Virus record (IMG/VR): IMGVR_UViG_3300012347_000446
Coordinates: 1 to 55,869 of that record
DNA from: a virus
Taxonomy: Duplodnaviria; Caudoviricetes
Reading direction: 5' to 3' (one strand)
Length of the DNA: 55,869 bases
Part shown: piece after piece, positions 29,258 through 43,644 of the stretch
How the letters are laid out: each line of letters begins with the position of its first letter
Position numbering within the stretch: position 1 is the first letter of the stretch
Notes under the pieces: generated by a model
What the model saw: the letters and a program-made list of their open reading frames with translations, nothing else
Database searches by the model: none
Told to the model about the DNA's origin: nothing
Translations under genes and position numbers: made by a program

Positions 29258-29288
29258 ATACCCTGGCTAATACCCAGGGTATTTTTTT
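29258..29288 (+). terminator. Terminator
   Basis: ATACCCTGG/CCAGGGTAT plus T run. Confidence 0.8.
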
Positions 29289-29291
29289 ACG

Positions 29292-29320
29292 TTGACTTTG
29301 TTGTGCTGGTGTGCTATAAT
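29292..29320 (+). promoter_or_regulatory. Promoter for the side-fibre/lysis operon
   Basis: TTGACT-17-TGcTATAAT. Confidence 0.8.
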
Positions 29321-29442: not shown

Positions 29443-29805
29443 ATGTTAGAATCTAATTTTGAGCAAAACTTACAAGCTACTAGCCTAATTGCAATAGCAG
29501 TAATGGCGGTTTTTATAGGTGCGCAAAAAATCTTGAAAAATTGGCGAAGCACTGAAGCAGAAACATCAATTATAACTCTTATGCACACAGAATTAGAGCG
29601 TATGAGTGAGCAGAATACAAAGCTTAGCTTAGAACTTGGCAGGCTGCATTCGGAAATAATTGCACTAAACAATGAGCTGCAAAAGTTAACTGCTGAAAAC
29701 CAGCATTTACGCACTGAAGTAAGCGCACTTACACAAGAAGTAAGCAAGTTCAAGCGGCTATCAGAAACACAGAAAGGTACTGCAAATGCAACCCGCAAAA
29801 CTTAA
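29443..29805 (+). CDS. Membrane-anchored coiled-coil protein
   Basis: One N-terminal TM helix plus leucine heptads; AGGAGA SD. Confidence 0.7.
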   Translation: MLESNFEQNLQATSLIAIAVMAVFIGAQKILKNWRSTEAETSIITLMHTELERMSEQNTKLSLELGRLHSEIIALNNELQKLTAENQHLRTEVSALTQEVSKFKRLSETQKGTANATRKT

Positions 29806-30379
29806 TTACAAAATATATCAAGGAAGTACTTTTCAAGAAAGCTACCGTTGGGAATCAGAAACAAAAGTTTATGTACCGATTTCAGCTATTGCTAAAAGTG
29901 CTCCATGTGTTATAACAACAACTCAAGCTCATGCTATACCACAAGGCTGGAGAGTCCGGGTAGTTGGAGCCGGTGGTATGAAAGAGCTAAACAGCGTTGG
30001 AGATGCTTACCATCTAGTAACAAGCGTTACCGATTCTACAGTTACCCTAAATCAGGTAAATAGCTTAGGTTACACTGTCTACACTAGTGGCGGTGTTTTA
30101 GAATACAACCAGCCTGTTCCATTAACAGGTTATAATGCGCGTATGCAAATTCGCGAAACTGTAGATAGTCCCACAACTTTATACTCAACTACCAGCATTG
30201 CTGGTGACCTTACAGTAGATACCACACTAAACACTATTATGATTACTATTCCTGCAAGTGTAACGCAGGCATTTGATTTTACCACCGCAGTATACAGCCT
30301 TGAATTGTATACTGCAGCCGGATTGGTAGTACCGTTTTTAGCAGGTAACTTAACCTTGGTACCGGAGGTAACAAGATGA
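29786..30379 (+). CDS. Fibre collar/adaptor (T5 p132/LtfC-like beta-sandwich) with an inserted FCCH-like domain
   Basis: YQGSTF...PLTGYNARMQIR...AVYSLEL framing ISAIAKSAPCVITT...GGMKELN. Confidence 0.55.
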   Translation: MQPAKLNYKIYQGSTFQESYRWESETKVYVPISAIAKSAPCVITTTQAHAIPQGWRVRVVGAGGMKELNSVGDAYHLVTSVTDSTVTLNQVNSLGYTVYTSGGVLEYNQPVPLTGYNARMQIRETVDSPTTLYSTTSIAGDLTVDTTLNTIMITIPASVTQAFDFTTAVYSLELYTAAGLVVPFLAGNLTLVPEVTR

Positions 30380-30639
30380 CTGAAACTGTAGTTGTAGAAA
30401 AAGCGCACACAGTTATCTCTGACCAAAAACCACAAACAATCGTCACACAAAATACCAGCGTACAAACAATTGTAACAGGTATAATGGGCCCTCCAGGAGT
30501 AACAACCCTAAGTGGTGCTACTGACGTAGATAAAACACAGCTAACTGATGGGGCGGTGCTTGTTTATAAAGCAGATACGTCTATTTGGCGTGCTACAAAT
30601 AAATTAGATAACCAGATATTAGAAGCTGGTCAATTTTAA
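30376..30639 (+). CDS. Small fibre adaptor protein
   Basis: GPPG, DVD...DGAVLVY...W, C-terminal EAGQF. Confidence 0.55.
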   Translation: MTETVVVEKAHTVISDQKPQTIVTQNTSVQTIVTGIMGPPGVTTLSGATDVDKTQLTDGAVLVYKADTSIWRATNKLDNQILEAGQF

Positions 30640-30651
30640 AGGAATGATACA

Positions 30652-32538
30652 ATGGCATCTCTTATTAAGATAAAAAGATCAGAGGTTTCTGGTAATCCCG
30701 CAGTACTTGGTGCCGGCGAATTAGCTTACTCTGCTTTAGCCGATAACGGGTCAAATGGTGGTGACCGCCTATACATTGGTATGGGAACTGAAACAGCAGG
30801 CAATGCTGTTAATCACGTTGTAATTGGTGGTAAATATTTTACTGATCAAATTACTGCTGCCACAGCAGCAAATACAGCGTCAGCAATTGTTCGTCGTGAT
30901 GCGTCGGGTAACTTTGTAGCTGGTACAATTACTGCTGCTTTAACAGGTAACGCTGCAACCGCAACAAAGTGGGCTACAGCTCGTAACTTGAGCCTAACCG
31001 GTGATGCAACCGCAACATTGAGTGCTGTTGACGGATCTGCTGCTGTTAGTGCCGCAATTACATTAGCCACAGTTAACTCAAACGTTGGAAGTTTTGGTAG
31101 CGCCACTACTATTCCAGTTGTTACAGTTAACGCCAAAGGTTTGGTTACAGCCGTAAGTACTGCTTCAATTAGCACAACACTAAACGTTGCAGGCTCTACT
31201 GGCACAGGTACAATTGCACTGGCAACCGATACCCTGACAATTGCAGGTGGTACTGGTGTTACAAGTGCATACAATAACACCACAAAAACTACTACATTAA
31301 GTATTGGTCAAGCAGTTGGTACAACAGACAACGTAACTTTCAACAACGTTGCTGTTAACGGTACACTAAGTTCCGACGACATTACTGCTGCCAACATCAG
31401 CGTAGCAGGTAATGCAACCATTACCGGTAACTTAACTGTTCAAGGTACAACAACCACTATTAACTCCACAGCCGTTGCTGTTAGCGATGTTAATATTACA
31501 CTAGCCAAAGATGCTACCACAGCCGCTGCTGCCAATGGCGCAGGCTTAACAGTTGCTGGTCCAGCCGTACCTGCTACACTTACTTACACAAGCGCGGATG
31601 ATCGCTGGAACTTTAACAAAGGCCTAAACGTAGGTACTGTTTATGGTGCGCTAAGTGGTAACGCTACAACAGCTACCACACTACAAACTGCACGTAACAT
31701 CAACGGTGTAAGTTTTAACGGTAGTGCAGATATTACAATTACTGCAAATACCACAAATGCTTTAACAATTGGTACTGGACTAAGTGGTACCAGCTACAAC
31801 GGTTCTGCAGCAGTAACTATTGCTGTTGATGCAACAATTGCAAGACGCGCAGATGCTCTTTTTGTTGGTACTACATCAGTTGCCCTAAACCGCGCCAGCG
31901 CTAACCTTGCACTAACCGGTATTAGCAGTGTAACACTACCAGGTGCTACATCAGGTACAGTTCAACTTGTACCGGCCGCAGTTGCAGGTACAGCAGTAAT
32001 TACACTACCAGCCGTAACTGGTACAGTTGTAACAACAGGAGATACTGCTACAGTTACTAACACAATGCTGGCTGGCTCAATTGCCAATGCCAAGTTGGTG
32101 AACAGTAGTGTAACCATTGGTACAACAGCAATTGCCTTGGGTGCTTCTAGTACTACATTAGCAGGTTTAACAAGTGTTGCATCTACAAGTTTCACAGGTG
32201 CCTTAACTGGTAATGCTAGTACAGCCAGCGCACTGGCAACTGCTCGTGCTATTACAGCAACTGGTGACGCATCATGGACAGTTAACTTTGACGGATCAGC
32301 CGCTGTAAGTGCTGCACTTACACTAGCAACTGTTAACTCAAACGTTGGCGCTTTTGGTAGTGCTACAGCTGTACCCACAGTAACTGTTAATGCCAAAGGT
32401 TTGGTAACTGCGGTTTCTACCACAGCTATTCCAACAGCCACTACAAGTGTAAACGGTTTAGCAAGTTTTGATTCAACCATCTTTACTGTAACCGGTGGGC
32501 TGGTAACTGTTGCAACGCTGGACGGCGGAACATATTAA
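30652..32538 (+). CDS. Tail fibre protein 1
   Basis: IKIKRS...GELAY head motif, TATKWATAR-type repeats, internal duplication. Confidence 0.75.
   Translation: MASLIKIKRSEVSGNPAVLGAGELAYSALADNGSNGGDRLYIGMGTETAGNAVNHVVIGGKYFTDQITAATAANTASAIVRRDASGNFVAGTITAALTGNAATATKWATARNLSLTGDATATLSAVDGSAAVSAAITLATVNSNVGSFGSATTIPVVTVNAKGLVTAVSTASISTTLNVAGSTGTGTIALATDTLTIAGGTGVTSAYNNTTKTTTLSIGQAVGTTDNVTFNNVAVNGTLSSDDITAANISVAGNATITGNLTVQGTTTTINSTAVAVSDVNITLAKDATTAAAANGAGLTVAGPAVPATLTYTSADDRWNFNKGLNVGTVYGALSGNATTATTLQTARNINGVSFNGSADITITANTTNALTIGTGLSGTSYNGSAAVTIAVDATIARRADALFVGTTSVALNRASANLALTGISSVTLPGATSGTVQLVPAAVAGTAVITLPAVTGTVVTTGDTATVTNTMLAGSIANAKLVNSSVTIGTTAIALGASSTTLAGLTSVASTSFTGALTGNASTASALATARAITATGDASWTVNFDGSAAVSAALTLATVNSNVGAFGSATAVPTVTVNAKGLVTAVSTTAIPTATTSVNGLASFDSTIFTVTGGLVTVATLDGGTY
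31030..32420 (+). repeat. Diverged internal duplication in fibre 1 (about 31030-31160 vs 32290-32420)
   Basis: DGSAAVSAA[IL]TLATVNSNVG[SA]FGSAT..P.VTVNAKGLVTAVST twice, 1260 bp apart. Confidence 0.85.
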
Positions 32539-32586
32539 AAACTAGCAGGGCTTTTTAGCCTTGCTTAATTCCTTTTTAGGGCTAAC

Positions 32587-33951
32587 ATGGCAAGTAAGAT
32601 TGTTCTTAAAAAATCATCAGTAGCTAGTAAAGTACCACTAGCTGCTGATTTGGACTACGGAGAAGTAGCCCTTAATTACCAGGATGGTAAACTATACTTT
32701 AAAAAAGCCAATAACACTATTGATGCTTTTACTGCAACATTAACGTCTTCTGCAGTTACTACTGCCCTGGGATATACTCCACTATCTACTGGTGGTGGTA
32801 CTATAACTGGAGATATTACAGCCACAATGAATCAGGCTGTACATGGTTTTTCAACTTTACCTTCTGGGTATGTTGAAAGTAACCCACAAAACTTTAGATT
32901 TGACCAAGATGTTTTACGTTACGTAAACCGTAGAGCTGAAGCAGTAATTACTACTAGCGGATTTACCTTAGGTGAGGTAGACGTACTATTTAGCCAGTAT
33001 GCTTCTTTTGTTAATTTAAATGGTAAAGCTGATGGTAGCTATATTCAAATAGAAGGATTTTCTTTTAATAATAGCGCAAACGGTTACTGGTGGCCTTATA
33101 TATTTACACACGCAGGCAGCTATAGCGGTGCAAATATTACTATGGAAATTAAGACCAGCGGCTCTGCTAGCTGGCAAACATTATACACAGGTACTTTTGG
33201 AAGCTATAAAATTGCTAATATAGGTAGTATTGGTGGGTCTTTAACTGGAGTTAGATGGACATTTACTGGGCAAAGCACAGTTAATACTTATGTTAGGTAT
33301 TTAGGCGTTATTGGTAGAAATTCTGACGCGTATAACTGGAGTATAATGAAAGGCGGAGACACCATGTTTGGTGATCTGACTTTTGCTCCTGGTTACTCAG
33401 TACGTGCACCAATATTTTACGATTCAGCAAATCCTTCCTTTTATTTAGACCCTAATCAAACATCAGTATTATCTGGTTTAACATTAGCTAATACTGCTAC
33501 TTTTAATGGCAGCGCCGTTTTTAATAACACAGTCACTCACTCAGGACTTACACTTACAGACGGCACTAATGTTGACCAAGTAAAAACAATCACCAAGTCA
33601 ATAACACTGACTACTGATTGGCAAGATACTGGTATCAAATCAACTGATCTTGCAACAGGAACCTACATAGTTCAGCTTATTGCAAACGATAGTGGTAGTG
33701 GCGGTACCAACAACAACGAGTATTATTCAGGTACCATGAGTTGGTATAGTGGAGATACTAACTCGGCATTAGAAATGCCCACAGACGAAATAGTCTTGCA
33801 TCGTGCAGGAGCAAGCGGCGAAGGTGCTCTATATTTAAGAACATATAGAACACCTACCGCAGATGTTAATAACTTAAAACTTCAGATCTATTCAAACACA
33901 GCCAATGCGTCAGCCGCAAACTATGTGTTTAAATTTAGACGTATTATCTAA
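32587..33951 (+). CDS. Tail fibre protein 2
   Basis: IVLKKSSV...GEVALNYQDGKLYFK head; TALGYTP; RAPIFYDSAN motif. Confidence 0.7.
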   Translation: MASKIVLKKSSVASKVPLAADLDYGEVALNYQDGKLYFKKANNTIDAFTATLTSSAVTTALGYTPLSTGGGTITGDITATMNQAVHGFSTLPSGYVESNPQNFRFDQDVLRYVNRRAEAVITTSGFTLGEVDVLFSQYASFVNLNGKADGSYIQIEGFSFNNSANGYWWPYIFTHAGSYSGANITMEIKTSGSASWQTLYTGTFGSYKIANIGSIGGSLTGVRWTFTGQSTVNTYVRYLGVIGRNSDAYNWSIMKGGDTMFGDLTFAPGYSVRAPIFYDSANPSFYLDPNQTSVLSGLTLANTATFNGSAVFNNTVTHSGLTLTDGTNVDQVKTITKSITLTTDWQDTGIKSTDLATGTYIVQLIANDSGSGGTNNNEYYSGTMSWYSGDTNSALEMPTDEIVLHRAGASGEGALYLRTYRTPTADVNNLKLQIYSNTANASAANYVFKFRRII

Positions 33952-33963
33952 CAGGAGCATTAG

Positions 33964-35937
33964 ATGGCTTTTAAAATTAAAGACGGTGTACAGATAGGCA
34001 CCGTTAACGTATTCAATAATGCGGGTGCACTGCTAGTTAATGCGCCTTCCGCTACAGTTTTAGCAAATGCACGAACTATTGCTATTAGTGGGGCTGTAAC
34101 AGGTACTGCCACTAGTTTTGATGGTGGTGCAAATATTACAATCAGTGCTACAGCATTAGCTGCAGCCAACTTAAGCGGTACTATTCCAAGTGCTGTATTG
34201 GGTGCAAGCAGTGTATTTATTGGTAGTACCTCAGTTGCACTAAATCGCGCCACGGGTGCTCTAGCACTAACCGGCGTAAGCATTGACGGTAACGCCGGTA
34301 CGGTTACAAACGGTGTATACACAAACGGCAGTTATGCAGATCCTGCATGGATTACTAGCCTAGCAAAATCCAAAGTTGGTTTAGCAAACGTAGAAAACAC
34401 TGCACTAAGTACATGGGCTGGTAGTAGTAATATTACTACTATTGGTGCTGCTACTGCAACAAGTTTGGTGGTTAGTGGTAACTTAACTGTAAACGGTTCT
34501 ACAACCACAGTTAATTCCACAGTTACCACACTAGACGACCCAGTTATCACGCTTGGTGGCGATACCGCTCCAGCCAGTGATGACGGCAAAGATCGTGGTG
34601 TTGAATTCCGTTGGCACAATGGCACAGTTGCCAAAATTGGTTTCTTTGGTTTTGATGATAGTACAGGCAAGTTTACCTTTATTCCAGATGCCGCAAACGC
34701 ATCCGAAGTGTTCTCTGGCACAAAAGGTGTGCTTGATGCTTCTATTGAATGGGCTGACATTTTAAACAAACCAGCAGTAGGTACTGGTAGCGTTACAAGT
34801 GTAGCAATGACTGTGCCAACTGGTTTAACAGTTACTGGCTCACCAATTACCACATCAGGTACATTTGCAGTTACATTAACCGCCGGATACTCAATTCCAA
34901 CCACAGCTTCACAAACAAACTGGGATACGGCATTCACAGACCGTAACAAGTGGGACGGTGGCTCAACTGGTTTAACAGCATCCACAGGCCGTACTAGCCT
35001 AGGTGCTACAACAGTTGGTGGTAACTTATTTACACTTGCTAACCCAACAGCAGTTACGTTCTTGCGTGTTAATGCAGATAATACAGTAAGCACGCTAGAC
35101 GCTGCCACATTCCGTGGTGCAATTGGTGCAGGTACTAGCTCTACTGTAGGTACAGTAACAAGTGTTGGCGGTACAGGAACTGTTGCTGGTTTAACACTGT
35201 CTGGTACAGTTACTGCAAGTGGTAACTTGACTCTTGGGGGTACATTAAGCACTCCAGTTAGCACTATTAACGACAGTACAACACTAGGCCAAAACTTAGT
35301 TAAACTAGCTAACCCAGGTGCTGTTACCTTCTTGCGTGTTAATGCTGACAATACAGTAAACACACTGGATGCTGCTACATTCCGTACAGCTATTGGCGCT
35401 CAAGTTAGTGGCAGCTACTTGACCAGCTACACAGAAACGGATACCTTGGCAACTGTAACTGGTCGTGGGGCCACAACAGCCACAGCCATTACATTAACCA
35501 ACTCTACAAATGCAACCAGCAGTTCAACTGGTGCTTTAGTAATTACTGGTGGTTTGGCAGTTAATGCTAACGTATACGTAAAAGGTACGTTCTTGGATGC
35601 CAACAGCGCCGGTACTATTATTAGTGCTCGCGATACAGTTCAAGCCGTTGTAGCTACTACAACCGCAACTGCCGTAGATACTTGGGCAATTGCCACTTAT
35701 CGCGCAGTCAAGTACTTGGTACAAATTACTCAAGGCAGCAACTACCAGTTTTCTGAGATTGTAGTTGTACATAACGGTACTACTACAACAATGACTGAAT
35801 ACGCTGTTGTAGAAACAAACGGTGCGCTTGGTGCCTTTACAGCCGATGTAAGTGCCGGTAATGCTCGCTTGTTAATAACAATGGGCTCAGCAACTAGCGC
35901 AACAATCAACATTCAGCGCACACTAATGGTTGTGTAA
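33964..35937 (+). CDS. Tail fibre protein 3
   Basis: Thr/Gly/Ala-rich; GSVTSVA motifs; C-terminal YRAVKYLVQITQG...TEYA domain. Confidence 0.7.
   Translation: MAFKIKDGVQIGTVNVFNNAGALLVNAPSATVLANARTIAISGAVTGTATSFDGGANITISATALAAANLSGTIPSAVLGASSVFIGSTSVALNRATGALALTGVSIDGNAGTVTNGVYTNGSYADPAWITSLAKSKVGLANVENTALSTWAGSSNITTIGAATATSLVVSGNLTVNGSTTTVNSTVTTLDDPVITLGGDTAPASDDGKDRGVEFRWHNGTVAKIGFFGFDDSTGKFTFIPDAANASEVFSGTKGVLDASIEWADILNKPAVGTGSVTSVAMTVPTGLTVTGSPITTSGTFAVTLTAGYSIPTTASQTNWDTAFTDRNKWDGGSTGLTASTGRTSLGATTVGGNLFTLANPTAVTFLRVNADNTVSTLDAATFRGAIGAGTSSTVGTVTSVGGTGTVAGLTLSGTVTASGNLTLGGTLSTPVSTINDSTTLGQNLVKLANPGAVTFLRVNADNTVNTLDAATFRTAIGAQVSGSYLTSYTETDTLATVTGRGATTATAITLTNSTNATSSSTGALVITGGLAVNANVYVKGTFLDANSAGTIISARDTVQAVVATTTATAVDTWAIATYRAVKYLVQITQGSNYQFSEIVVVHNGTTTTMTEYAVVETNGALGAFTADVSAGNARLLITMGSATSATINIQRTLMVV
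35023..35400 (+). repeat. Duplicated module in fibre 3 (LANP.AVTFLRVNADNTV.TLDAATFR.AIGA), 270 bp apart
   Basis: Seen at protein and DNA level. Confidence 0.85.
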
Positions 35938-35982
35938 TACTGTGGGGCTTAGCGCCCCACTCTTTCGTGGATAGGGAAACGA

Positions 35983-37668
35983 ATGGCAAACGAGTTTAAA
36001 GTAAAAAATGGCATAAAGTTCCAGGACGGAACAATCCAAACAACCGCAGCAACTGGCGGAGGTGGTGGAGGCAGTTCAGCAATCACAATCAGTGATGCTG
36101 CACCAGGGTCTCCTACAGCAGGCATGCCCTGGTGGGATAGCACTGTTGGTAGTTTACGTATTTATTATAATGATGGTACTAGCTCACAGTGGGTTGACGC
36201 ATTTAACGCACAAGGTAACGCTGGTGTAGATGGTAAAAGCATTCTTAATGGTACTGTGGACCCTACTACTCAGGGCTTAGACGGGGATTTCTACATAAAT
36301 ACTGCTACAAAGTATTTTTTCGGACCCAAAGCCGCAGGAACATGGCCAGCCGGTACATACATGCTGGGCACCACACTGGTGTCTGTGGGTACAGCGCCAC
36401 CAACTTCTCCACTAAATGGCTCAACTTGGTGGGACAGCAACATTGGTAAATTGTTTATTAGTTACAATGATGGTACTAGCACACAGTGGGTTGGTGTTGC
36501 AAACGATCCGGGCACAGACGGTGTTGGAGTTGCCATAGGCGGTACAATCGGCCAAGCACTGGTAAAAAACAGTAGCACAGACTATGATACTACCTGGACT
36601 AGTATTATACCTTCAAGCGGTGTGGCTATTTCAGCAGGTAAGTTTAACACTTCAGCTACTAATCCCACTAACACTACTCGTTTAAATTACGAAGGTAACT
36701 TTTATGCTACCAGTTTAAATGGAAGCTTAACTGATACCTATATTACCTATACTAGCCGAGCAGCAAACTTGGTATTAGCAGCTCCAAATAATGCAGCAGG
36801 TGCCCCAACTTTTCGTAACCTAACACTAGAAGACTTGCCAGATGCTTGGGTTAAAAAGGCTGTTAAATGTGCTACTACCGCCAACATTACGCTTAGCGGA
36901 ACTCAAACCATTGATGCGATTGCAGTTGTTGCTGGCGACCGCGTACTAGTAAAAAATCAAAATACTGCATCTCAAAACGGTATTTATGTGGTTGCAGCTG
37001 GAAGCTGGACACGTGCACTTGATTCCGACACTGCCAGCGAATTAGCAGGTGCAATGGTAGCTGTGGATCAAGGTACTGTAAACGGCGGTAAAACCTATGA
37101 TTGCGACTTTAAGTCAACTGATACAGTGGGCACTACTGTAGTCACTTGGCACCGTATGCTGGACGATTCTGTTGCTGATCTTTACTATCGCAAAAATACT
37201 GCCACCAGTTTGTCCAGCAGTACTAGTGCACAATCTTGGCTAGGATTGACCAGTGGTGTAACTGTTACAGCCAGCACAATTTATGCGTTTGAAGGTAGTT
37301 TTCGCCTAACAACTAGTGGCACTACTTCTCATACAGAAAGCATACTGTTTGGCTTAACCTCTGCCACAGTAACAAACATGGATTACTCTGTTAATCGTTT
37401 TATTAACAGTACTACAGCCACTGCCCCACAAACTGTTCGAGGCACAGCAGTTACTGCACTTGTTGTAACTCCTGCAATTACAACAGCCCAAGATGTTACT
37501 TATTTTATCAAAGGCACGGTGGCATTTGGTACTGGCGGTAGCTTTAACCCGCAAATTCAGTTTTCTGCAGCACCTGGCGGTACATCCACTGTGATTCTTG
37601 GGGCTATGTTTAAAATGACTCCACTTGGCACAACCGGCTCTAACGCCATTAACGGAACATGGGCATAA
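35983..37668 (+). CDS. Tail fibre protein 4 / branching adaptor
   Basis: Two WWDS..G.L.I.YNDGTS.QWV modules; LSGTQTID...DRVLVKNQ...NGIY domain. Confidence 0.7.
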   Translation: MANEFKVKNGIKFQDGTIQTTAATGGGGGGSSAITISDAAPGSPTAGMPWWDSTVGSLRIYYNDGTSSQWVDAFNAQGNAGVDGKSILNGTVDPTTQGLDGDFYINTATKYFFGPKAAGTWPAGTYMLGTTLVSVGTAPPTSPLNGSTWWDSNIGKLFISYNDGTSTQWVGVANDPGTDGVGVAIGGTIGQALVKNSSTDYDTTWTSIIPSSGVAISAGKFNTSATNPTNTTRLNYEGNFYATSLNGSLTDTYITYTSRAANLVLAAPNNAAGAPTFRNLTLEDLPDAWVKKAVKCATTANITLSGTQTIDAIAVVAGDRVLVKNQNTASQNGIYVVAAGSWTRALDSDTASELAGAMVAVDQGTVNGGKTYDCDFKSTDTVGTTVVTWHRMLDDSVADLYYRKNTATSLSSSTSAQSWLGLTSGVTVTASTIYAFEGSFRLTTSGTTSHTESILFGLTSATVTNMDYSVNRFINSTTATAPQTVRGTAVTALVVTPAITTAQDVTYFIKGTVAFGTGGSFNPQIQFSAAPGGTSTVILGAMFKMTPLGTTGSNAINGTWA

Positions 37669-37671
37669 TAT

Positions 37672-39138
37672 ATGGCATTAGAATTTCCTTCAAGCCCTAC
37701 AACAGGGCAAACATATGTAAACGGTAACCTTACCTGGAAGTGGAACGGCACTGCCTGGAATCCAGTAGGCGGTCAAACCGTAACCACTCAAGTTATTACC
37801 ACACCAGTATTTTCTACGCCTAGTCAAGCTGCAGTAGGACAAGTTGTGGTAGTAAAAGCGTCCGCCACAAGTTTGTTGGCTGGTGGCAGCATAGCTACCT
37901 TTAGAATTACTGTTCCTGGATTTGGTACTAACACAGTAGCTGCCACATCCAGCGCTGGTCAGTACAGTTTTACAACCAGCGGTAGTTTGGGTAACAGTAT
38001 TACTGTACAAGCACAAGCGGTAGACAACTACGGCAACTTATCTCCTGTTAATAGTTTTGAAATTGTACTAAGCACTAACTATGTAAACAAAGCAACAATT
38101 ACCTCTCCAGCTAACTTAGCTACCGGGGTATCAAATGGTTTAACAATTACTACTGCTGCCTTTGCTGTTACTGGTGGTTCTGATACCCTAGATCGTACTG
38201 AGTTTGAGATTCGCAATGCGGCAGATGTATTGTTATGGTCAACATTTGCAAGCTCATCTTTGACCACAACAGTTCCGGATAATACTGTGGCTGCTGGTGC
38301 TACGGTATTTATACGTGCTCGCCATGTTGGTGTTACCTATGGTTCTGGTCAGTGGAGTGACTTAACTCAGATTACCATGGAATCAAACTTAACGCCCAGC
38401 AAGTATGGTGATGCATATGCCGGCGGATTTTATGCTGGCAGAATCATAATGTCTGGCAACATTTATGCTATAGTTGTGGCACCGGCTAGTTCGGAAACCA
38501 CACTTGCTGCGGCTATCAATAGCACAAGCGGTACTTTAACCACAGGTGCAAAATCACTGTTTGATGGTTTGGCCAATACCAATGATCTTATCTTAAACAG
38601 CACAACATTTTGGCCTGCAGCATCCTATTGCTATAACCTTTCACTAAACAGCTACACAGATTGGTATCTGCCTAGTTTAATGGAGCTGGAATTAGCTTAT
38701 AGAACACTAAAACCCACGGATGCCCTCAATAGCCTTACTGAAGCGTATGATGCTAACATTGGCGGTAATACTAGTATAGTGAATGTGCCTTCTACTTGGA
38801 ACGGTAACTTAAACAATGAGTGGGGTTACGCTTCCGCAACTACAACTGCTGTTCCTGCTGGCGGGGGCACTTATACTAACAGTTCCGTAGCTACTTTTCC
38901 TGCTATGACTACTGCAACTGCATTTCAAAGCTCGCTGTTGCAGGAAGCTTTTGCCTCAGACACTTACTGGAGCTCTAGCGCTATTAGTGTTACAGTTGCT
39001 GGCCGGGAAAATTTAGGGTTTTTTAGGTTTACTGATGGTTATACCGAGGGTAGCGGAAGTGCTACAGGAAATACCATTTATACCACCCAAGTACGCAGAG
39101 TTAGACCATTTCGCAGAGTATTTTTAGGTACAGTATAA
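37672..39138 (+). CDS. Fibre/receptor-binding protein with Fn3-like and C-terminal DUF1566 (C-type-lectin-fold)-like domain
   Basis: GGFYAG, DGLANT, YTDWYLPSLMEL, YWSSS, VRPFRR motifs. Confidence 0.7.
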   Translation: MALEFPSSPTTGQTYVNGNLTWKWNGTAWNPVGGQTVTTQVITTPVFSTPSQAAVGQVVVVKASATSLLAGGSIATFRITVPGFGTNTVAATSSAGQYSFTTSGSLGNSITVQAQAVDNYGNLSPVNSFEIVLSTNYVNKATITSPANLATGVSNGLTITTAAFAVTGGSDTLDRTEFEIRNAADVLLWSTFASSSLTTTVPDNTVAAGATVFIRARHVGVTYGSGQWSDLTQITMESNLTPSKYGDAYAGGFYAGRIIMSGNIYAIVVAPASSETTLAAAINSTSGTLTTGAKSLFDGLANTNDLILNSTTFWPAASYCYNLSLNSYTDWYLPSLMELELAYRTLKPTDALNSLTEAYDANIGGNTSIVNVPSTWNGNLNNEWGYASATTTAVPAGGGTYTNSSVATFPAMTTATAFQSSLLQEAFASDTYWSSSAISVTVAGRENLGFFRFTDGYTEGSGSATGNTIYTTQVRRVRPFRRVFLGTV

Positions 39139-39605
39139 TGATAATTATAGTAACACACATTGATATTATAACAGGCGTTTCAGTAGCACAAGCTCCTGCC
39201 AAAAACGGACCTAAACTGCCGGAATTTGACAACCTCAGAGTATTGTGGGCCAAAACCAGCAAGTACCCTGCAGAAGTACCGGAGTTTGTTTGTGAGATCA
39301 CAGATGGACAAAATATTGAGGTTCAAGGAGTATTAGGTACTTATACCCCTGAGCAGGAGCAGGCGGCTTATTTGCAAGAGCTTGATGATCGTATTTTAAA
39401 AGATTACAATCAACGTGCAAAACCAATACGCAATCGCAGAAACGAATTATTAACTGCTTCTGATATATACGTAATAGCTGATTATCCAATTTCGGAAATC
39501 AAAAGAACCGAGTGGAAAGCATATCGACAAGCCTTGCGGGACGTTACTTTGCAAAGTACTTTTCCTGACTCCGTTGATTGGCCCACAGAACCTGCTAAGG
39601 AATAA
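39138..39605 (+). CDS. Tail fibre assembly chaperone
   Basis: IRNRRNELLTASD...WKAYRQALRDV...WPTEP. Confidence 0.85.
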   Translation: MIIIVTHIDIITGVSVAQAPAKNGPKLPEFDNLRVLWAKTSKYPAEVPEFVCEITDGQNIEVQGVLGTYTPEQEQAAYLQELDDRILKDYNQRAKPIRNRRNELLTASDIYVIADYPISEIKRTEWKAYRQALRDVTLQSTFPDSVDWPTEPAKE

Positions 39606-39607
39606 CA

Positions 39608-40018
39608 ATGGCAATCAATTTTCCTTCAAGCCCTGCAACAGGGCAAACATTTACTAGTGCAGGTAAAACTTGGTATTGGACAGGCAGTTCTTGGTCAGCA
39701 AGTAATAATATATTTGCTTCACCAACAATTGCCGTAGCCGCACTAGATATTAATTGTAGCTCTAGCAATTATTTTACAAAAACTATTGCCGCCAACAGTA
39801 CTTTTACTTTTAGCAACGTGCCAGCAACTGGTGTTGCTTATAGTTTTACCCTTGAGCTTACTCACACAAGTGGTACAGTAACGTGGCCTGTTAGCGTAAA
39901 ATGGGCAGGAGATACTACCCCACTGTTAACCACAGGCAAAACTCACCTGTTTATGTTTGTAACAGATGATGGTGGCACACGTTGGCGCGCGTCGTCGCTG
40001 CTTAACTTTGTAAACTAA
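39608..40018 (+). CDS. Short fibre anchor protein
   Basis: FPSSPATGQT N-terminus; TFTFSNVP...TWPVSVKW...TDDGGTRW. Confidence 0.65.
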   Translation: MAINFPSSPATGQTFTSAGKTWYWTGSSWSASNNIFASPTIAVAALDINCSSSNYFTKTIAANSTFTFSNVPATGVAYSFTLELTHTSGTVTWPVSVKWAGDTTPLLTTGKTHLFMFVTDDGGTRWRASSLLNFVN

Positions 40019-40019
40019 T

Positions 40020-41402
40020 ATGGATAAAACTACACAAAGGCTAATGTCCGGCACAGCCGCTGTGCCTTCAGAAAAGTGGATTGTAAAATACACCACTAGT
40101 TTACCGAATACGGCGTACCTGCCATTTAGTACTTCTGCTGGAGGTTTATTAACTTCAAATGGCACTAATACATTTTTAGTGCTTGGTTATAGCAGCAGTT
40201 CTAAATATGTTACCTTAAATACCTATGGAGATATTACTCAATCTGTGGACGGAACAAACTCTGTACAGTATGAGTGGCCTTACTCTTTGGGTCAATATGT
40301 TGGTACCAGTTACTATTTAACCTCACTTTATAATTACACATTTAATTCAACACTATCAACCGTAATTAGCAGAACTATAGTTGATAATGCATTAGACGCT
40401 ACCAGTAGTTATAATATAAGCAGAGTTTACTATAATAATACGTTTACCTGGGGTTTAGGTCGTAGAAATACTACAATATCAAGTTTAGCTATTGTAATGT
40501 TTAATTCCTCAAATGTTACTCAGTGGATAAGAAATATAACTCCACCAACTAATTATCAATTTAGCGAAATAGCCATGTGCCCTGTAGCTAGCGACATGGA
40601 AATTCTTGCTGAAATGTATGATCCTAACGGTACACTATTAAATAAAGTATTTACCGCAAAAGTTGCTAACAGCTCCGGAACTGTTAGTGTTCAAAGATTA
40701 ATAGGCGACTCGGTTTATAGCTTAAGACCTGTATGTATGGTTGCTGATACTAGCAATAAATATATAGTGGTAACAAGCTCACTTGAAGAAACTTATTTGC
40801 TAAAAATAAACGCTGCAGGTACTTTGCAGTGGCAAAAAAGAATAGCCTCATCTGATATTTACTTTTATCAACCAAGTTACACAGACGTAAATGGAGAAAT
40901 AATTGCCATAGACTCAGTCGGAGATATATATCTAGTAAGAGGATCAACCGCGTACCTAGACCAAGTATTTATTAAAGTAACAAAAATAAATACGGCCGGA
41001 ACCGTTGTTTTTACTAATACTATTTCAATACCAAGCTTATCATCTGGTAATTACAGACCCGGCCAAGCAATTGTACTAGTATCTGGAACCAGTGTAGTAG
41101 TAAGTGCAACATACTACGATTATACTTTAAACCCAACTAATTTAACCAGTTGTTTTATTAAGTTTTCAACCGCAGACAGTACCCTACCACTTGGTACTTA
41201 TCAAATAGCTGGACACCCAGATCTTTATATTTCTAGTGATACTGGCACTTCACTGCCTACGTCAACTCTGTCTGTTACTACAGTTTCGTATACTACAAGT
41301 ACTTTATCGACTACTTATATATCTAAAGTTGACTCAAATGACTCGCAGTATTTTATTACTTCTACTAATGTTCCAAGCATAAGTAAGGCACAATTACCAT
41401 GA
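40020..41402 (+). CDS. Putative beta-propeller receptor-binding protein
   Basis: LLKINAAGTLQWQK and IAIDSVGDIY repeats; Ser/Thr/Tyr-rich. Confidence 0.55.
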   Translation: MDKTTQRLMSGTAAVPSEKWIVKYTTSLPNTAYLPFSTSAGGLLTSNGTNTFLVLGYSSSSKYVTLNTYGDITQSVDGTNSVQYEWPYSLGQYVGTSYYLTSLYNYTFNSTLSTVISRTIVDNALDATSSYNISRVYYNNTFTWGLGRRNTTISSLAIVMFNSSNVTQWIRNITPPTNYQFSEIAMCPVASDMEILAEMYDPNGTLLNKVFTAKVANSSGTVSVQRLIGDSVYSLRPVCMVADTSNKYIVVTSSLEETYLLKINAAGTLQWQKRIASSDIYFYQPSYTDVNGEIIAIDSVGDIYLVRGSTAYLDQVFIKVTKINTAGTVVFTNTISIPSLSSGNYRPGQAIVLVSGTSVVVSATYYDYTLNPTNLTSCFIKFSTADSTLPLGTYQIAGHPDLYISSDTGTSLPTSTLSVTTVSYTTSTLSTTYISKVDSNDSQYFITSTNVPSISKAQLP

Positions 41403-41836
41403 CACAATATATTAATACCGAAACATTGGAATACCCAGTATTTCAACAAGATATTATTGCTGCGTTTCCAAACACATCTTTTGAATCTGACTTTAAAGCC
41501 CCGTATCCTTTTGCAGAAGTTTTTGAAGCAGAAACAATTAATCAAGGACCTTATCAAAAAATAACAGAAGTACTTCCAGTATACAGCAATGGGCACTGGA
41601 ATAAAACTTATGCTATTGAAGATATGACAGCAGCGGAAATACAAGCAGTCAATATTAAAAAAGGATCTTTGATTAGAAATAAACGTAATGTTTTACTAAC
41701 TCAATCAGACTGGACCCAAGTTGCAGATGCCCCCGTAAATCAGCAAGCTTGGGCAACCTACCGCCAAGCACTGCGAAACATTACACAGCAACCTGGATTT
41801 CCACTAGAAATCACGTGGCCCACACAACCGGAGTAA
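41399..41836 (+). CDS. Second tail fibre assembly chaperone
   Basis: IRNKRNVLLTQSDWTQ...WATYRQALRNI...WPTQP. Confidence 0.85.
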   Translation: MTQYINTETLEYPVFQQDIIAAFPNTSFESDFKAPYPFAEVFEAETINQGPYQKITEVLPVYSNGHWNKTYAIEDMTAAEIQAVNIKKGSLIRNKRNVLLTQSDWTQVADAPVNQQAWATYRQALRNITQQPGFPLEITWPTQPE

Positions 41837-41839
41837 CCT

Positions 41840-42313
41840 ATGGTAATAGAAACACTACTAAGCGGAGTATTCGGCGGGTTACTTCGCCTTGCTCCAGAAG
41901 CAATGAAAATCTTTGATCGAAAAAATGAGCGAGAGCATGAACTAAAAATGCTGCAACTTGAGCACGAATTTGCCAAAACCAAAGCTGAAGCGCAAATTCG
42001 TCAAGGTGAACAGCAAGTTAACATCAAAGAGTTTGAAGCAATCAGTGCAGCTATTGAAGAACAATCTAAAACTTCACAAGCCGCTGGTTGGTTTATTGCT
42101 GCAATTAATGCACTAGTACGACCAACTACAACTTACTTGTTTTTAGGCTGCTACTTTTTGGTTAAAGCTGCACTATATTCTATGGCTACGGTTGCGGGAG
42201 CACCTTGGAATGAAGTAGTTATTGCACTTTGGACCAAAGATGATATTGCAATCCTATTCATGATTATCTCATTCTGGTTTGTAGGACGAGTATATGAACG
42301 AAAAGGCAGTTGA
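41840..42313 (+). CDS. Holin-like membrane protein
   Basis: VRP motif followed by two TM helices and FWFVGR; overlaps the lysozyme gene. Confidence 0.6.
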   Translation: MVIETLLSGVFGGLLRLAPEAMKIFDRKNEREHELKMLQLEHEFAKTKAEAQIRQGEQQVNIKEFEAISAAIEEQSKTSQAAGWFIAAINALVRPTTTYLFLGCYFLVKAALYSMATVAGAPWNEVVIALWTKDDIAILFMIISFWFVGRVYERKGS

Positions 42314-42752
42314 GCTAGCCACACAACTATGTATACATTTTGAGGGATTTTCTAGTACTCCCTACTTATGTCCGGCTGGATATTGGACTATAGGTTACGG
42401 TACTGTTTACAAGCCGGATGGTAGTCGTGTTACTGCTGCACATCCGGCTATATCTCGTGAAACTGCACTAGTTTGGTTGCAGCATGAAATAACTCACAAT
42501 TATATGCCGGCTGTGTTAAGTGTTACACCTGGTGCAGCCAAGTACCCAATGCTCTTAGGAGCACTTACAGACTTTGCTTACAACCTAGGCGGCCCACGCT
42601 ACCGTGCTAGTACACTAGCCAAGCGTGTACGTGACGAGCAGTGGACAGAAGCACGTAGCCAGCTATTGTTGTGGAACAAAGGCGGCGGCCGAGTCCTTCC
42701 AGGACTAGTTCGCCGCAGAGCAGCAGAAGCAAAATTCTTTCCGCAAAACTAA
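42294..42752 (+). CDS. Endolysin, GH24 lysozyme
   Basis: FEGF...YLCPAGYWTIGYG (E-x8-C-x5-T), FAYNLG, LPGLVRRRAAE. Confidence 0.92.
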   Translation: MNEKAVELATQLCIHFEGFSSTPYLCPAGYWTIGYGTVYKPDGSRVTAAHPAISRETALVWLQHEITHNYMPAVLSVTPGAAKYPMLLGALTDFAYNLGGPRYRASTLAKRVRDEQWTEARSQLLLWNKGGGRVLPGLVRRRAAEAKFFPQN

Positions 42753-42760
42753 AAATCGGA

Positions 42761-42789
42761 TTGACACCAAAACCTACAACTGGTATAAT
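42761..42789 (+). promoter_or_regulatory. Consensus promoter for phoH
   Basis: TTGACA-17-TGgTATAAT. Confidence 0.85.
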
Positions 42790-42843: not shown

Positions 42844-43602
42844 ATGGCAAGAAATAGTGGTAAAACCCATCGCACCTTCCCAGCAAAAAAGTCTAGCAAA
42901 CAACCCACACGCGAACAGCAAAGTACTTGGCGTGCTGAAAAACAAGCTGGTGAAGATGTACCAAAAGTCTCCAGAAATTACACATTTAAAGAAGTTAAAC
43001 CACTAAACTTCATCCAAGGCGAGTATTTATCCGCCATTGAATCAAATGACATAGTTTTTGGAATCGGATCAGCAGGCACTGGCAAAACATTTATTGCCGC
43101 CAGTTATGCAGCTGCTGAGCTATATTACAAACGTATTGATAAAATCATACTTACCAGACCCAATGTTGAAACTGGGCGAGGCATGGGATTTTTACCTGGC
43201 GAGCTTGACGAAAAGTACGCACCATACCTGCAACCATTTGATCAAGTGTTTACACGAGCACTAGGCAAAGGGTTCTATGAATACTCGCTAAAAGTCAAGG
43301 ATATCGACCCTAAACCGCTGGGATTTATGCGTGGAGCAAGTTTTGAAGACTGCATTATTTTAGTTGATGAAGCACAAAACTTAACCAAAACTGAGTTTAA
43401 AATGTTGCTATCACGCATTGGCAAAAACTGCAAGGTTATCTTGAGTGGCGACCCAAAACAAACTGATATTACTGACTCAGGTCTTTTAGACGCTACCAAG
43501 CGATTAAGCGGTATTCCTGGTGTTGAAGTAATTACTTTTCAAGATTCGGATATTGTGCGTAGTGCAATGTGCAAGCAAGTTATCTTAGCCTATAACAATT
43601 AA
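42844..43602 (+). CDS. phoH: PhoH-family ATPase
   Basis: GSAGTGKT, GFLPG, FMRG, DEAQN, SRIG, GDPKQTD. Confidence 0.95.
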   Translation: MARNSGKTHRTFPAKKSSKQPTREQQSTWRAEKQAGEDVPKVSRNYTFKEVKPLNFIQGEYLSAIESNDIVFGIGSAGTGKTFIAASYAAAELYYKRIDKIILTRPNVETGRGMGFLPGELDEKYAPYLQPFDQVFTRALGKGFYEYSLKVKDIDPKPLGFMRGASFEDCIILVDEAQNLTKTEFKMLLSRIGKNCKVILSGDPKQTDITDSGLLDATKRLSGIPGVEVITFQDSDIVRSAMCKQVILAYNN

Positions 43603-43604
43603 AC

Positions 43605-43644
43605 AAAAAGCCCCACGCTATTGCTAGTGTGGGGCTTCTTTTTT
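43605..43644. terminator. Bidirectional terminator between phoH and dps
   Basis: AAAAAGCCCCAC...GTGGGGCTTCTTTTTT. Confidence 0.8.

Follow-up and report, generated by a model that had tools for sequence, protein, structure and literature searches.

A proposed serial tail-fibre chain with paired docking modules in an uncultured, distantly T5-like siphophage

Receptor-binding systems built from several proteins, some of them branched, decide the host range of phages, and the known examples come from a few model phages. The long tail fibre of T4 joins several products end to end in gene order, gp34-gp35-gp36-gp37, with dedicated chaperones, and T2-type phages carry a small or variable adhesin at the fibre tip (gp37-gp38). 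The Klebsiella jumbo phages phiKp24 and RaK2/phiK64-1 reportedly gather many receptor-binding proteins in one branched apparatus. Further cases have been described. In the T5-like phages DT57C and DT571/2 the collar protein LtfC holds LtfA, LtfB reaches the virion only via LtfA, and both fibres have receptor-binding parts (PMC4728585, PMC10713586); CBA120 and G7C are named among the branched systems (PMC4728585). In KP32, K11 and KP34, which are podophages of Klebsiella, the secondary receptor-binding protein uses a conserved N-terminal peptide to dock on a domain that the primary one has for this purpose, and the parts are exchangeable (PMC13352976). Multi-protein fibres with docking peptides and branched receptor-binding systems are therefore already established. 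Here we analyse a virus record of 55,869 bases, IMGVR_UViG_3300012347_000446 of IMG/VR (the window), and within it a block of eleven genes at 29786-41836. We propose, giving the reading about an even chance, that an uncultured siphophage, distantly T5-like, has its adsorption (tail-fibre) module in this block, and that the products would form a serial chain that carries tips headed by an FPSSP motif (FP-headed).

The block consists of eleven plus-strand open reading frames (ORFs) separated by intergenic distances of -4 to +48 nucleotides (nt). The products comprise one collar protein, one small adaptor and four long fibres, together with two FP-headed proteins, a beta-propeller protein and two PF16778 chaperones, the last roles being assigned by family or fold match:

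29786-30379, plus strand: collar-like protein, 197 residues, with a phmmer match to PDB 26dk_M.
30376-30639, plus strand: adaptor, 87 residues, with a GPPG motif, a 'DG.vLVY..T..W' hairpin and an E[AS]GQF-type end at 30622-30636 (EAGQF here).
30652-32538, plus strand: fibre 1, 628 residues, with the head IKIKRS..GELAY at 30664-30729, the end ..LDGGTY at 32521-32535 and PHROG tail-fibre matches.
32587-33951, plus strand: fibre 2, 454 residues, with the head IVLKKSS..GEVALNY at 32599-32676 and the end ..NYVFKFRRII.
33964-35937, plus strand: fibre 3, 657 residues, with the head MAFKIKDG, the end ..INIQRTLMVV and PHROG structural and tail-fibre matches.
35983-37668, plus strand: fibre 4, 561 residues, with the head MANEFKVKNG, two WWDS (W) modules at 36094-36201 and 36394-36498 and the end ..NGTWA.
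37672-39138, plus strand: FP-headed protein 1 (g37672), 488 residues, starting MALEFPSSPTTGQT, with an FPSSP head at 37672-37767 and a match to phrog_4245.
39138-39605, plus strand: putative tail-fibre assembly chaperone 1 (g39138), 155 residues, PF16778, with matches to PHROG tail fibre assembly families.
39608-40018, plus strand: FP-headed connector (g39608), 136 residues, starting MAINFPSSPATGQT, with an FPSSP head at 39608-39703 and a predicted beta-sandwich ending ..RWRASSLLNFVN at 39716-40015.
40020-41402, plus strand: variable distal protein (g40020), 460 residues, a predicted beta-propeller with the N-terminal peptide MDKTTQRLMSG at 40020-40052.
41399-41836, plus strand: putative tail-fibre assembly chaperone 2 (g41399), 145 residues, PF16778.

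An original prediction, read from the letters of the window alone, had described this block as eleven fibre, adaptor and chaperone genes with characteristic terminal motifs. All of the ORFs were recovered at their coordinates, each motif, searched as a regular expression, occurred only where it had been placed, and PHROG, Pfam, PDB and ESM Atlas matches agreed with a module of this kind. The motifs stand above chance, being kept in relatives and recurring in thousands of other proteins, and like heads come in pairs: two IxxK[KR]S, two FK.K.G and two FPSSP. PHROG families labelled most of the remaining block proteins as tail fibre or structural, several of the family names referring to head decoration. 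Pfam returned nothing for the heads, the adaptor and the W region, even at E<=10, and no match for the fibre proteins at E<=0.01, including no Peptidase_S74 (PF13884) intramolecular chaperone. An all-against-all BLASTP comparison of the tail proteins, run with no composition correction, was swamped by low-complexity Thr, Ala, Gly and Ser stretches and was used only for the chaperone pair and the FP pair.

In the assembly that we propose, a ring-forming collar would anchor the small adaptor, and the products would assemble head-to-tail in gene order, with the N-terminal strand head of each docking on the C-terminal end of the protein upstream. The serial joints would run from the adaptor (..EAGQF) to fibre 1, from fibre 1 (..DGGTY) to fibre 2, from fibre 2 (..FKFRRII) to fibre 3 and from fibre 3 (..IQRTLMVV) to fibre 4. 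The two W modules of fibre 4, each of about 35 residues, may be sockets for the two FPSSP-headed products, which would dock in trans. Plug 1 would be the protein with the lectin-like Lcl_C end and plug 2 the 136-residue connector, whose beta-sandwich would hold the variable beta-propeller protein through the peptide MDKTTQRLMSG. Each terminal unit would be served by its own Tfa-type chaperone, the C-terminal domain of fibre 4 is possibly a third tip, and a long stalk of several segments would result, bearing two or three candidate receptor-binding tips that differ from one another. The hierarchical tree of fibres imagined at the outset survives at the last step only, where two W modules and two FP cassettes look branched, whereas the first four joints look serial and end-to-end. 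We computed motifs, homologies, conservation, pairing statistics and one predicted joint, that of fibre 1 and fibre 2; the other joints, the W-FP docking, the position in the virion and receptor binding we infer.

Compared with the described systems, the window would work like them but by sequence is not a member of the T5 fibre family. It resembles DT57C as described, being a T5-like siphophage with a collar-held first fibre and a second fibre joined through the first. However, searches with the collar and fibre 1 found no sequence similarity to collars or fibres of the T5-like kind, DT57C has two structural products and the window up to seven, and the window has separate PF16778 chaperones where LtfA and LtfB are reported to carry a C-terminal PF13884 (PMC4728585). 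Searching 50,697 phage records with fibre 1 by tblastn returned 6 records, none of them T5-like, and the pb1 family was absent among the PHROG matches of fibres 1-4; neither here nor in the tblastn search with the collar did the initial comparison with the T5 L-fibre and p132 find a sequence link to pb1 or p132. The T5 comparison is fair, and the relation distant, because T5-like phages of Vibrio, Serratia, Pectobacterium and Klebsiella have major tail proteins with 32-33% identity to that of the window; 907 records matched the window's protein, 893 of them over at least 80% of its length. The T4 fibre is alike in having several products in gene order, a tip adhesin and chaperones, but the joints of the window are short strand-type motifs common to siphophages, podophages and myophage-labelled records. 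phiKp24 and RaK2, which are likened here by description, differ in being jumbo myophages with depolymerase spikes.

The conserved N-terminal peptides of the window, namely the FP heads and the MD..Q.L peptide that follows the connector domain, may be functional analogues of the KP32 peptide rather than its sequence homologues. The modules and virion type differ from those of KP32, and the docking elements, xGG[ST]Y/IxxK[KR]S, W/FPSSP and ..RWRG..YVN/MD..Q.L, are read from sequence. The assembly domains of CBA120 TSP1-4 and the T4 gp10 type are likewise small beta-sandwiches that hold spikes or fibres, and TSP4-N is among the fold matches of the connector; this match lies below the level of a shared fold, and the domain of the window is C-terminal where theirs are N-terminal. 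Literature searches on multi-protein fibre architecture, which were not aimed at the motifs and had subscription journals outside their scope, turned up no paper on these joints.

A multimer check of terminal segments had been suggested together with the original prediction, and we ran it for the fibre 1 end and the fibre 2 head. Fibre 1 was represented by its last 114 residues in three copies, with an alignment of 17 rows, and fibre 2 by its residues 1-60, also in three copies. The complex reached an ipSAE (interaction prediction score from aligned errors) of 0.91 (runs 0.92, 0.91, 0.90) compared with 0.00 for the best of 3 controls, with a partner predicted local distance difference test score (pLDDT) of at least 86 and contact agreement of at least 97%. 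The calibration mark is reached by 116 of 157 solved pairs and by 2 of 215 mismatched pairs, counts that apply roughly, given our own alignments and multi-copy chains, which takes something from the strength of the prediction. The predicted interface lies between the last 10 residues of fibre 1 and residues 1-10, 15, 17, 21, 23 and 28 of fibre 2. Profile searches of PDB sequences with both sides of the joint found no solved relative; therefore, as far as sequence tells, the score is unlikely to be the memory of a known complex. The model supports an end-to-end junction of the fibre 1 end and the fibre 2 head.

Comparison of related loci points to the same two elements. A collar-seeded scan gave 30 loci, 24 of them close, and the close loci keep the order of small membrane/coiled-coil protein, collar, adaptor, fibre 1 and a gene with the fibre 2 head; downstream of that head the gene content changes throughout. 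The conserved parts of fibre 1 in relatives are the N-terminal ~65 and the C-terminal ~110 residues. Its end is always [DE][GA]G[TS]Y, including in three loci where the last 114 residues are only ~26% identical and where G112 and Y114 are invariant all the same. Fibre 2 keeps its first ~50 residues and nothing else, with bodies of 74-1379 residues. A donor-type C-terminus (xGG[ST]Y or xGQF) is followed by a gene with an IxxK[KR]S..GE head in 23 of 30 cases in the collar-seeded loci, as against 8 of 292 for other C-termini, and in the loci found with other seeds in 12 of 30 as against 16 of 3321 (odds ratio 138, p 6e-19). The proposed pairing of terminal motifs is borne out here, since these ends and heads co-occur across many phages. 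Among longer homologues, 15 of 15 have the head at residue 4-7, and neither these 15 nor the 135 proteins examined include a fused form in which a fibre 2-type head is internal.

The same cascade occurs in three further loci (L035, L038 and L042) and in Limnohabitans phage DC31 (locus L032, PQ492658, 8356-11179), the record of which is labelled Pakpunavirus. DC31 encodes a 118-residue half-collar, a 92-residue adaptor ending ESGQY, a 589-residue fibre 1 ending SIDGGTY and a 118-residue protein with an IILKKSS head, and the start of fibre 1 in the window is 82% identical over 164 residues to the DC31 protein. The presence of the cascade in a phage with this label implies that the module crosses phage types, and DC31 offers a cultured handle for work on it.

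Next, we considered the W modules and FP heads. The W modules of fibre 4, WWDS..YNDGTS.QWV, lie at residues 38-73 and 138-172 of its 561 residues and scored E 4.7e-23 and 2.3e-19 with a hidden Markov model (HMM) built from 34 modules of other proteins, the window being left out. An FP-head HMM likewise built without the window matched g37672 at E 3.8e-13 and g39608 at E 6.3e-14. All ORFs were scored with such HMMs in 80 W-seeded and 141 FP-seeded loci, which are among the matches listed from degenerate-DNA-pattern scans of viral contigs. FP-headed ORFs were present in 57 of the 80 W-seeded loci, compared with none of 30 collar-seeded and 6 of 80 connector-domain-seeded loci. A validated FP head was present in 79 of the 141 FP-seeded loci, and 68 of these 79 also hold a W module. 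In independent loci whose 8-kb flanks were complete, W modules and FP heads agreed in number in 13 of 21 (shuffles 6.0, p 0.0005, rho 0.51) and, in a second set, in 13 of 24 (shuffles 5.5, p 0.0015, rho 0.64); these p-values and those that follow overstate independence, the loci being related to each other, and to that extent the case is weaker than they suggest.

Order and position are linked as well. In FP-seeded loci 26 of 61 genes immediately ahead of the first FP gene contain a W module, and the frequency falls to 10/50, 4/43, 1/33 and 1/28 at positions -2 to -5; at successive positions after the last FP gene it is 1/57, 0/51 and 0/43. Among 59 distinct W proteins that have no FP head and are followed by a downstream gene, the FP-headed gene comes next in 22 and within three genes in 44, and the C-termini of these 59 are unlike each other. 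FP-headed proteins themselves contain a W module in 37 of 63 cases when another FP gene follows within three genes and in 9 of 90 when they are terminal (odds ratio 12.8, p 1.6e-10), a contrast that persists after single-linkage clustering at 40% identity (30/49 versus 5/63, p 1.3e-9). The typical gene order is [W][FP+W][FP+W][FP], as in L126, L166, L123 and L137. The window has two W modules and two FP cassettes; in L035 the fibre keeps the second W module alone and is accompanied by one FP cassette; and neither a W module nor an FP cassette is present in L038, which is closely related and shares the holin and lysozyme. That W modules and FPSSP heads are coupled, as had been anticipated, holds for number, order and position in two independently seeded sets of contigs.

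Both motifs can be read as members of one repeat family. A plain identity of the FPSSP head with the WWDS module was tried and rejected, as direct tests fail: the W HMM matches the heads over PSSPxxG only, at E 0.1-0.5. Alignment of the two profiles with hhalign covers 12 columns of a proline-rich lead-in, FPsSPsxGqxY/aPsSPxxGdLWW (probability 32%, P 4.7e-4). With a profile of 71 FP heads, 18257 representative proteins matched at E<=0.001, and 1913 of them reached E<=1e-10. In the best 150 of these matches the module lies at residue 1-3 in 104, at least 4 copies, often in tandem, are present in 39, and a match of the W profile overlaps 21 of the 433 stretches. Forms such as FPSSPKVGDLFYRTDENVLYRYDGSSW are intermediate between the FP and W motifs and link them, and both motifs are modelled as three short strands. 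Because of these bridging repeats and shared three-strand models, we read the FP head as an N-terminal copy of the ~35-residue repeat family of the W module. The coupling may then be explained most simply if single FP heads pack on single W modules in trans, just as adjacent repeats pack in cis. The FPSSP donors and WWDS acceptors of the original prediction are on this reading versions of one family rather than two unrelated motifs, and the ascription of these modules to aquatic T4-like phages was too narrow, with matches that include Ralstonia, Gordonia, Rhodococcus and Xanthomonas phages. Three proteins of 832-1083 residues (P0137, P0138 and P0139) each contain 8-10 FPSSP-type stretches, of which the seven or eight inspected in each lie 40-80 residues apart.

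Other end-to-head pairs were seen in small samples. The fibre 2 end ..NYVFKFR[RK].I is followed by a MAFKIKDGV head in 3 of 4 distinct cases (the window, L036 and L038), and the fibre 3 end ..I.I.RTL..V by a MANEFKVKNGIKF head in 3 of 3 cases with a downstream gene, one of which, L042, has a different head and body in the protein that bears the fibre 3-type end. The C-terminal ends of fibres 2 and 3 recur in phages whose partners differ, and joints fit this conservation better than host-specific tips do. At E<=0.001, 685 homologues match the first 200 residues of fibre 4, and their heads and C-terminal domains vary. Its middle domain (residues 290-393) is widespread and matches the capsid decoration protein PDB 9nx3 at E 4e-8, and a repeat of fibre 1 resembles phage L Dec (E 0.0013).

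Each long protein might instead attach separately, through its N-terminal head, to the collar, adaptor or baseplate, which we consider unlikely. The three pairs of like heads would then be paralogues that compete for or share three kinds of virion site, and the C-terminal ends would be folding or trimerization caps, each travelling with the next head as a DNA neighbour in a recombination hot spot with conserved gene boundaries. Such parallel attachment would account for the occurrence of heads in like pairs, and relatives swap bodies freely between heads, as modular recombination predicts. Donor ends and heads lie 10-50 nt apart, and in L036 the adaptor end stands directly before a fibre 2-type head with no fibre 1, so the heads are not bound to one partner. 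What speaks for the chain is that the predicted fibre 1-fibre 2 interface consists of exactly the conserved end and head, with controls at 0.00, and that the relatives have a single collar and a single adaptor gene ahead of the fibres. Moreover, W modules still predict the downstream FP gene when they lie up to about 1200 residues from the C-terminus, and terminal FP proteins are mostly without W, a pattern that DNA linkage at gene boundaries does not explain.

Several observations nonetheless weigh against the serial chain with docked tips. The phage is known from a metagenomic contig alone, a record of 55,869 bases without end repeats and with an estimated completeness of 53%, and our ORF calling and motif expressions were crude. 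The complex prediction covers one joint, fibre 1-fibre 2. The C-terminal ends and the head of the next gene are at most ~50 nt apart on the DNA, and their co-occurrence could reflect linkage across a recombination block rather than binding. In five loci (L012, L013, L014, L017 and L021; for example L017 12210-12650) the gene after fibre 1 is an ORF of 146-147 residues with the fibre 2-type head near residue 72, preceded by an unrelated stretch of 70 residues, although a GTG just before the head is a possible start and could be the true one. The W modules were modelled as three short strands each in an N-terminal model of fibre 4 that is poor (pLDDT 67) and gave nothing usable in a fold search. 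In 27 of 109 cases FP proteins have no W-bearing gene within four genes upstream, and in 28 ORFs an FP head and a W module share a chain. In the two sets, 8 of the 21 loci and 11 of the 24 have different numbers of W and FP, and some loci have 4-6 W modules to 1-2 FP genes, so that the claim of matched donor and acceptor numbers stands as a tendency above shuffles but not as a rule.

The serial chain may be one case of a more general arrangement, which we advance tentatively and rate somewhat below an even chance. Here a plug-and-socket grammar of at least four joint types would operate in tailed phages of differing morphotypes, the number of W sockets would predict the number of FP plugs and gene order would be assembly order. 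The joint types would pair the xGG[ST]Y end and the IxxK[KR]S head, strand-type ends and FK.K.G heads, the W module and the FPSSP head, and the ..RWRG..YVN beta-sandwich and the MD..Q.L peptide. W and FPSSP would be copies of one ~35-residue repeat, with docking in trans resembling packing in cis.

The two distal cassettes differ in composition. g37672 combines the FPSSP head with an FN3-like region and a C-terminal domain like Lcl_C (DUF1566). In the ESM Atlas, the structure rows of Lcl_C clusters match with template modelling (TM) scores of 0.75-0.86 by row, and a features match of 0.88 serves as a lead; Pfam PF07603 did not match g37672 itself at E<=0.01 and is carried by the Atlas neighbours alone. 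g37672 is a candidate receptor-binding tip on the basis of these models. Its chaperone g39138 matches PF16778 (Phage_tail_APC) at 77.6 bits and g41399 does so at 77.1 bits, the cut-off being 26.6, and the second chaperone is 40% identical to the first over 85 residues. Two FPSSP cassettes, each with its own chaperone, had been expected; the two heads and two chaperones are present, but the second cassette has three genes, with the 460-residue gene between the FPSSP-headed 136-residue gene and its chaperone.

The AlphaFold2 model of g39608 (pLDDT 90.3) shows a short three-strand head and a beta-sandwich. The best fold matches of the sandwich are the Pa223 capsid spike (Z 7.6), Solidus gp83 (Z 7.4) and a KP1 baseplate chain (Z 6.5), with CBA120 TSP4-N at Z 6.0 and 5.4 and weak Foldseek rows to T4 gp10 (E 0.69); all of the Z scores are below 8, the level that would prove a shared fold, and this too tells against the docking role that we propose. 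A scan with the connector domain, the C-terminal ~100 residues of g39608, kept 80 loci of 209 confirmed relatives. The domain is 50-80% identical in 93 ORFs of these 80 loci, plus one in L035; three further BLAST rows (two in L103, one in L109) are a head-only match or an overlapping frame. In the 93 ORFs, which range from 127 to 1391 residues and have many kinds of N-terminus, it lies at the C-terminus or at most 2 residues from it.

The gene after the connector domain mostly starts 2-9 nt later and begins with MD in 39 of 60 distinct pairs. The N-terminal motif ..[TS]Q.L..GA is found in 29 of 60 genes that follow the ..RWRG..YVN domain, compared with 37 of 5966 elsewhere, and a Tfa-type chaperone lies within three genes after the domain in 24 of 51 cases. 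On the strength of these pairings, g39608, g40020 and g41399 can be read as one unit, in which a conserved docking domain is joined by a variable distal protein that has its own chaperone. g40020 has no PHROG or Pfam match, its Atlas model resembles SBBP/DUF5122 beta-propellers (TM 0.59-0.73), and it is a candidate adhesin with a predicted beta-propeller fold.

If the proximal chain is real, the two FP cassettes, and perhaps fibres 3 and 4, could share one site and give a mixed population of alternative tips, which we regard as improbable. The FP heads are indeed close paralogues, the two proteins being 31% identical over 120 residues (E 2e-10), and FP genes exceed W modules in other loci, 2:3 or 1:4. 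Tandem like-headed sets after a single donor also exist: in L005 (15040-18003), L007 (17367-20557) and L008 (11621-14811), three tandem paralogues of ~300 residues, with the head ..QFRRG/..QLRRD/..YLKRG..P.L..GE and the end ..YPYIK[STL], follow a small protein ending ..PIDGGSA, which suggests from sequence three alternative or joint tips on one donor. Such sharing of a site is opposed by the equality of W and FP counts, which is commoner than in shuffles, and by the two of each in the window and one of each in L035.

We then compared the collar and adaptor with known structures. g29786 matches PDB 26dk_M ('Structural protein', 197 residues) by phmmer at E 1.2e-29, with residues 6-196 against 5-196, and ORF087 of the Pseudomonas podophage KPP25 is nearly identical to 26dk_M over its full length (E 9.6e-131). 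According to the report on A1002 (Kochitakasuvirus, the same genus as KPP25), its collar gp33 is a 197-residue double jelly-roll that forms a 15-fold ring on the neck adaptor, and the single jelly-roll collars of phages DEV and GP4 give fibre attachment sites (PMC13730344). From length, genus and name we infer that 26dk is the A1002 collar. g29786, with its full-length homology, is thus a probable collar homologue and virion-side anchor of the fibre system, and the collar-like first gene of the original prediction holds via this solved homologue rather than via T5 p132. A1002 differs in being a podophage in which, as reported, the collar rings the neck adaptor and chain-like fibres hang on gp39 (PMC13730344). 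In what that report describes, the gp33-type protein sits on the neck adaptor and is not seen holding fibres, which counts against an anchoring role here (PMC13730344). Shorter collar relatives of 118-134 residues retain the C-terminal half only. A tblastn search with g29786 found 23 records from Pseudomonas, Acidovorax, Acinetobacter, Xanthomonas and Limnohabitans phages, none of them T5-like, at the level of sequence rather than fold.

The adaptor is present in every relative that covers its position, ends with ESGQF, ECGQF, EAGQF, DSGQY, DCGQF or EGGYY, and is always followed by a gene that starts with the fibre 1 head. Its hairpin is found three times within protein P0050 (E 1e-6, 7e-4 and 7e-3) and is, judged by these matches, a further relative of the W/FP repeat family. 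Adaptor residues 55-85 also match weakly (E 0.02) a solved WWE-domain fragment of human TRIP12, which is probably convergence of a small beta-hairpin motif.

It is very improbable that the collar sits at the head-tail junction as in A1002 and that the chain forms whiskers or decoration fibres for loose adhesion or sensing rather than the primary tail adsorption organ: the solved collar homologue rings the neck adaptor (PMC13730344), the fibre 4 middle domain and the fibre 1 repeat resemble decoration proteins, a capsid spike heads the fold matches of the connector and several PHROG names are of head decoration, yet the genes stand after the tape measure and tail-tip genes and before lysis, two Tfa-type tail-fibre chaperones are among them, many homologues are annotated as tail fibres and the single jelly-roll collars of DEV and GP4 are described as holding tail fibres (PMC13730344).

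The remainder of the contig carries a classical siphophage structural module, with small and large terminase, portal, head-tail adaptor, tail terminator, major tail protein, two tail chaperones, a 2241-residue tape measure and four tail-tip proteins. The tape measure (13882-20607, PHROG tape-measure families) is long for a siphophage and would imply a very long tail, provided that length scales as usual. One 642-residue ORF at 7078-9006 matches families of head maturation protease at residues 28-314 and of major head protein as far as residue 626, and looks like a fused protease-capsid gene. The fibre block follows the tape measure and tail-tip genes, is succeeded directly on its 3' side by a holin-like gene and then a lysozyme, and had no nucleotide match when compared by megablast with the 50,697 phage records. 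The holin-like gene and lysozyme (41840-42752) are near-identical in L038 (12551-13463) and L043 (5174-6086), where they lie behind quite different fibre sets, and the fibre block therefore appears as a replaceable segment between conserved flanks.

On the other side, at 29443-29805, lies the gene of a 120-residue protein (phrog_3671) that combines an N-terminal hydrophobic stretch with a coiled coil and has many weak matches to coiled-coil Pfam families; it overlaps the start of the collar gene by 20 nt and is kept just upstream of the collar in relatives at 49-90% identity. Just before this cluster are a terminator-like hairpin (29258-29282) and then a promoter-like site (29292-29320, 11/12). 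A promoter-like site of 12/12 precedes the PhoH-like gene, which is followed by a strong hairpin (42761-42789; 43608-43637); the totals of such sites are not above shuffles, and single sites are leads only. The PhoH-like gene (42844-43602) and a ribonucleotide reductase gene (46118-48085) come after the lysis genes, and both are auxiliary genes frequent in aquatic phages. Antisense ORFs of up to 343 residues (for example 34332-35363, minus strand) within the Thr/Ala/Gly-rich fibre genes are most likely a by-product of composition.

If the serial chain with docked tips is true, sequence rules would allow the architecture of an adsorption organ to be read from metagenomic contigs, including the product on which each one sits and the number of tips. 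It would put names to short exchangeable connectors, of a kind already used to re-target laboratory phages, and the reach of the FPSSP-type module, at 18257 representative proteins, is wide. For the phage itself, it would mean that a T5-like tail carries a very long fibre of several segments, with two or three tips that differ from each other, which goes beyond DT57C and its fibre of two proteins.

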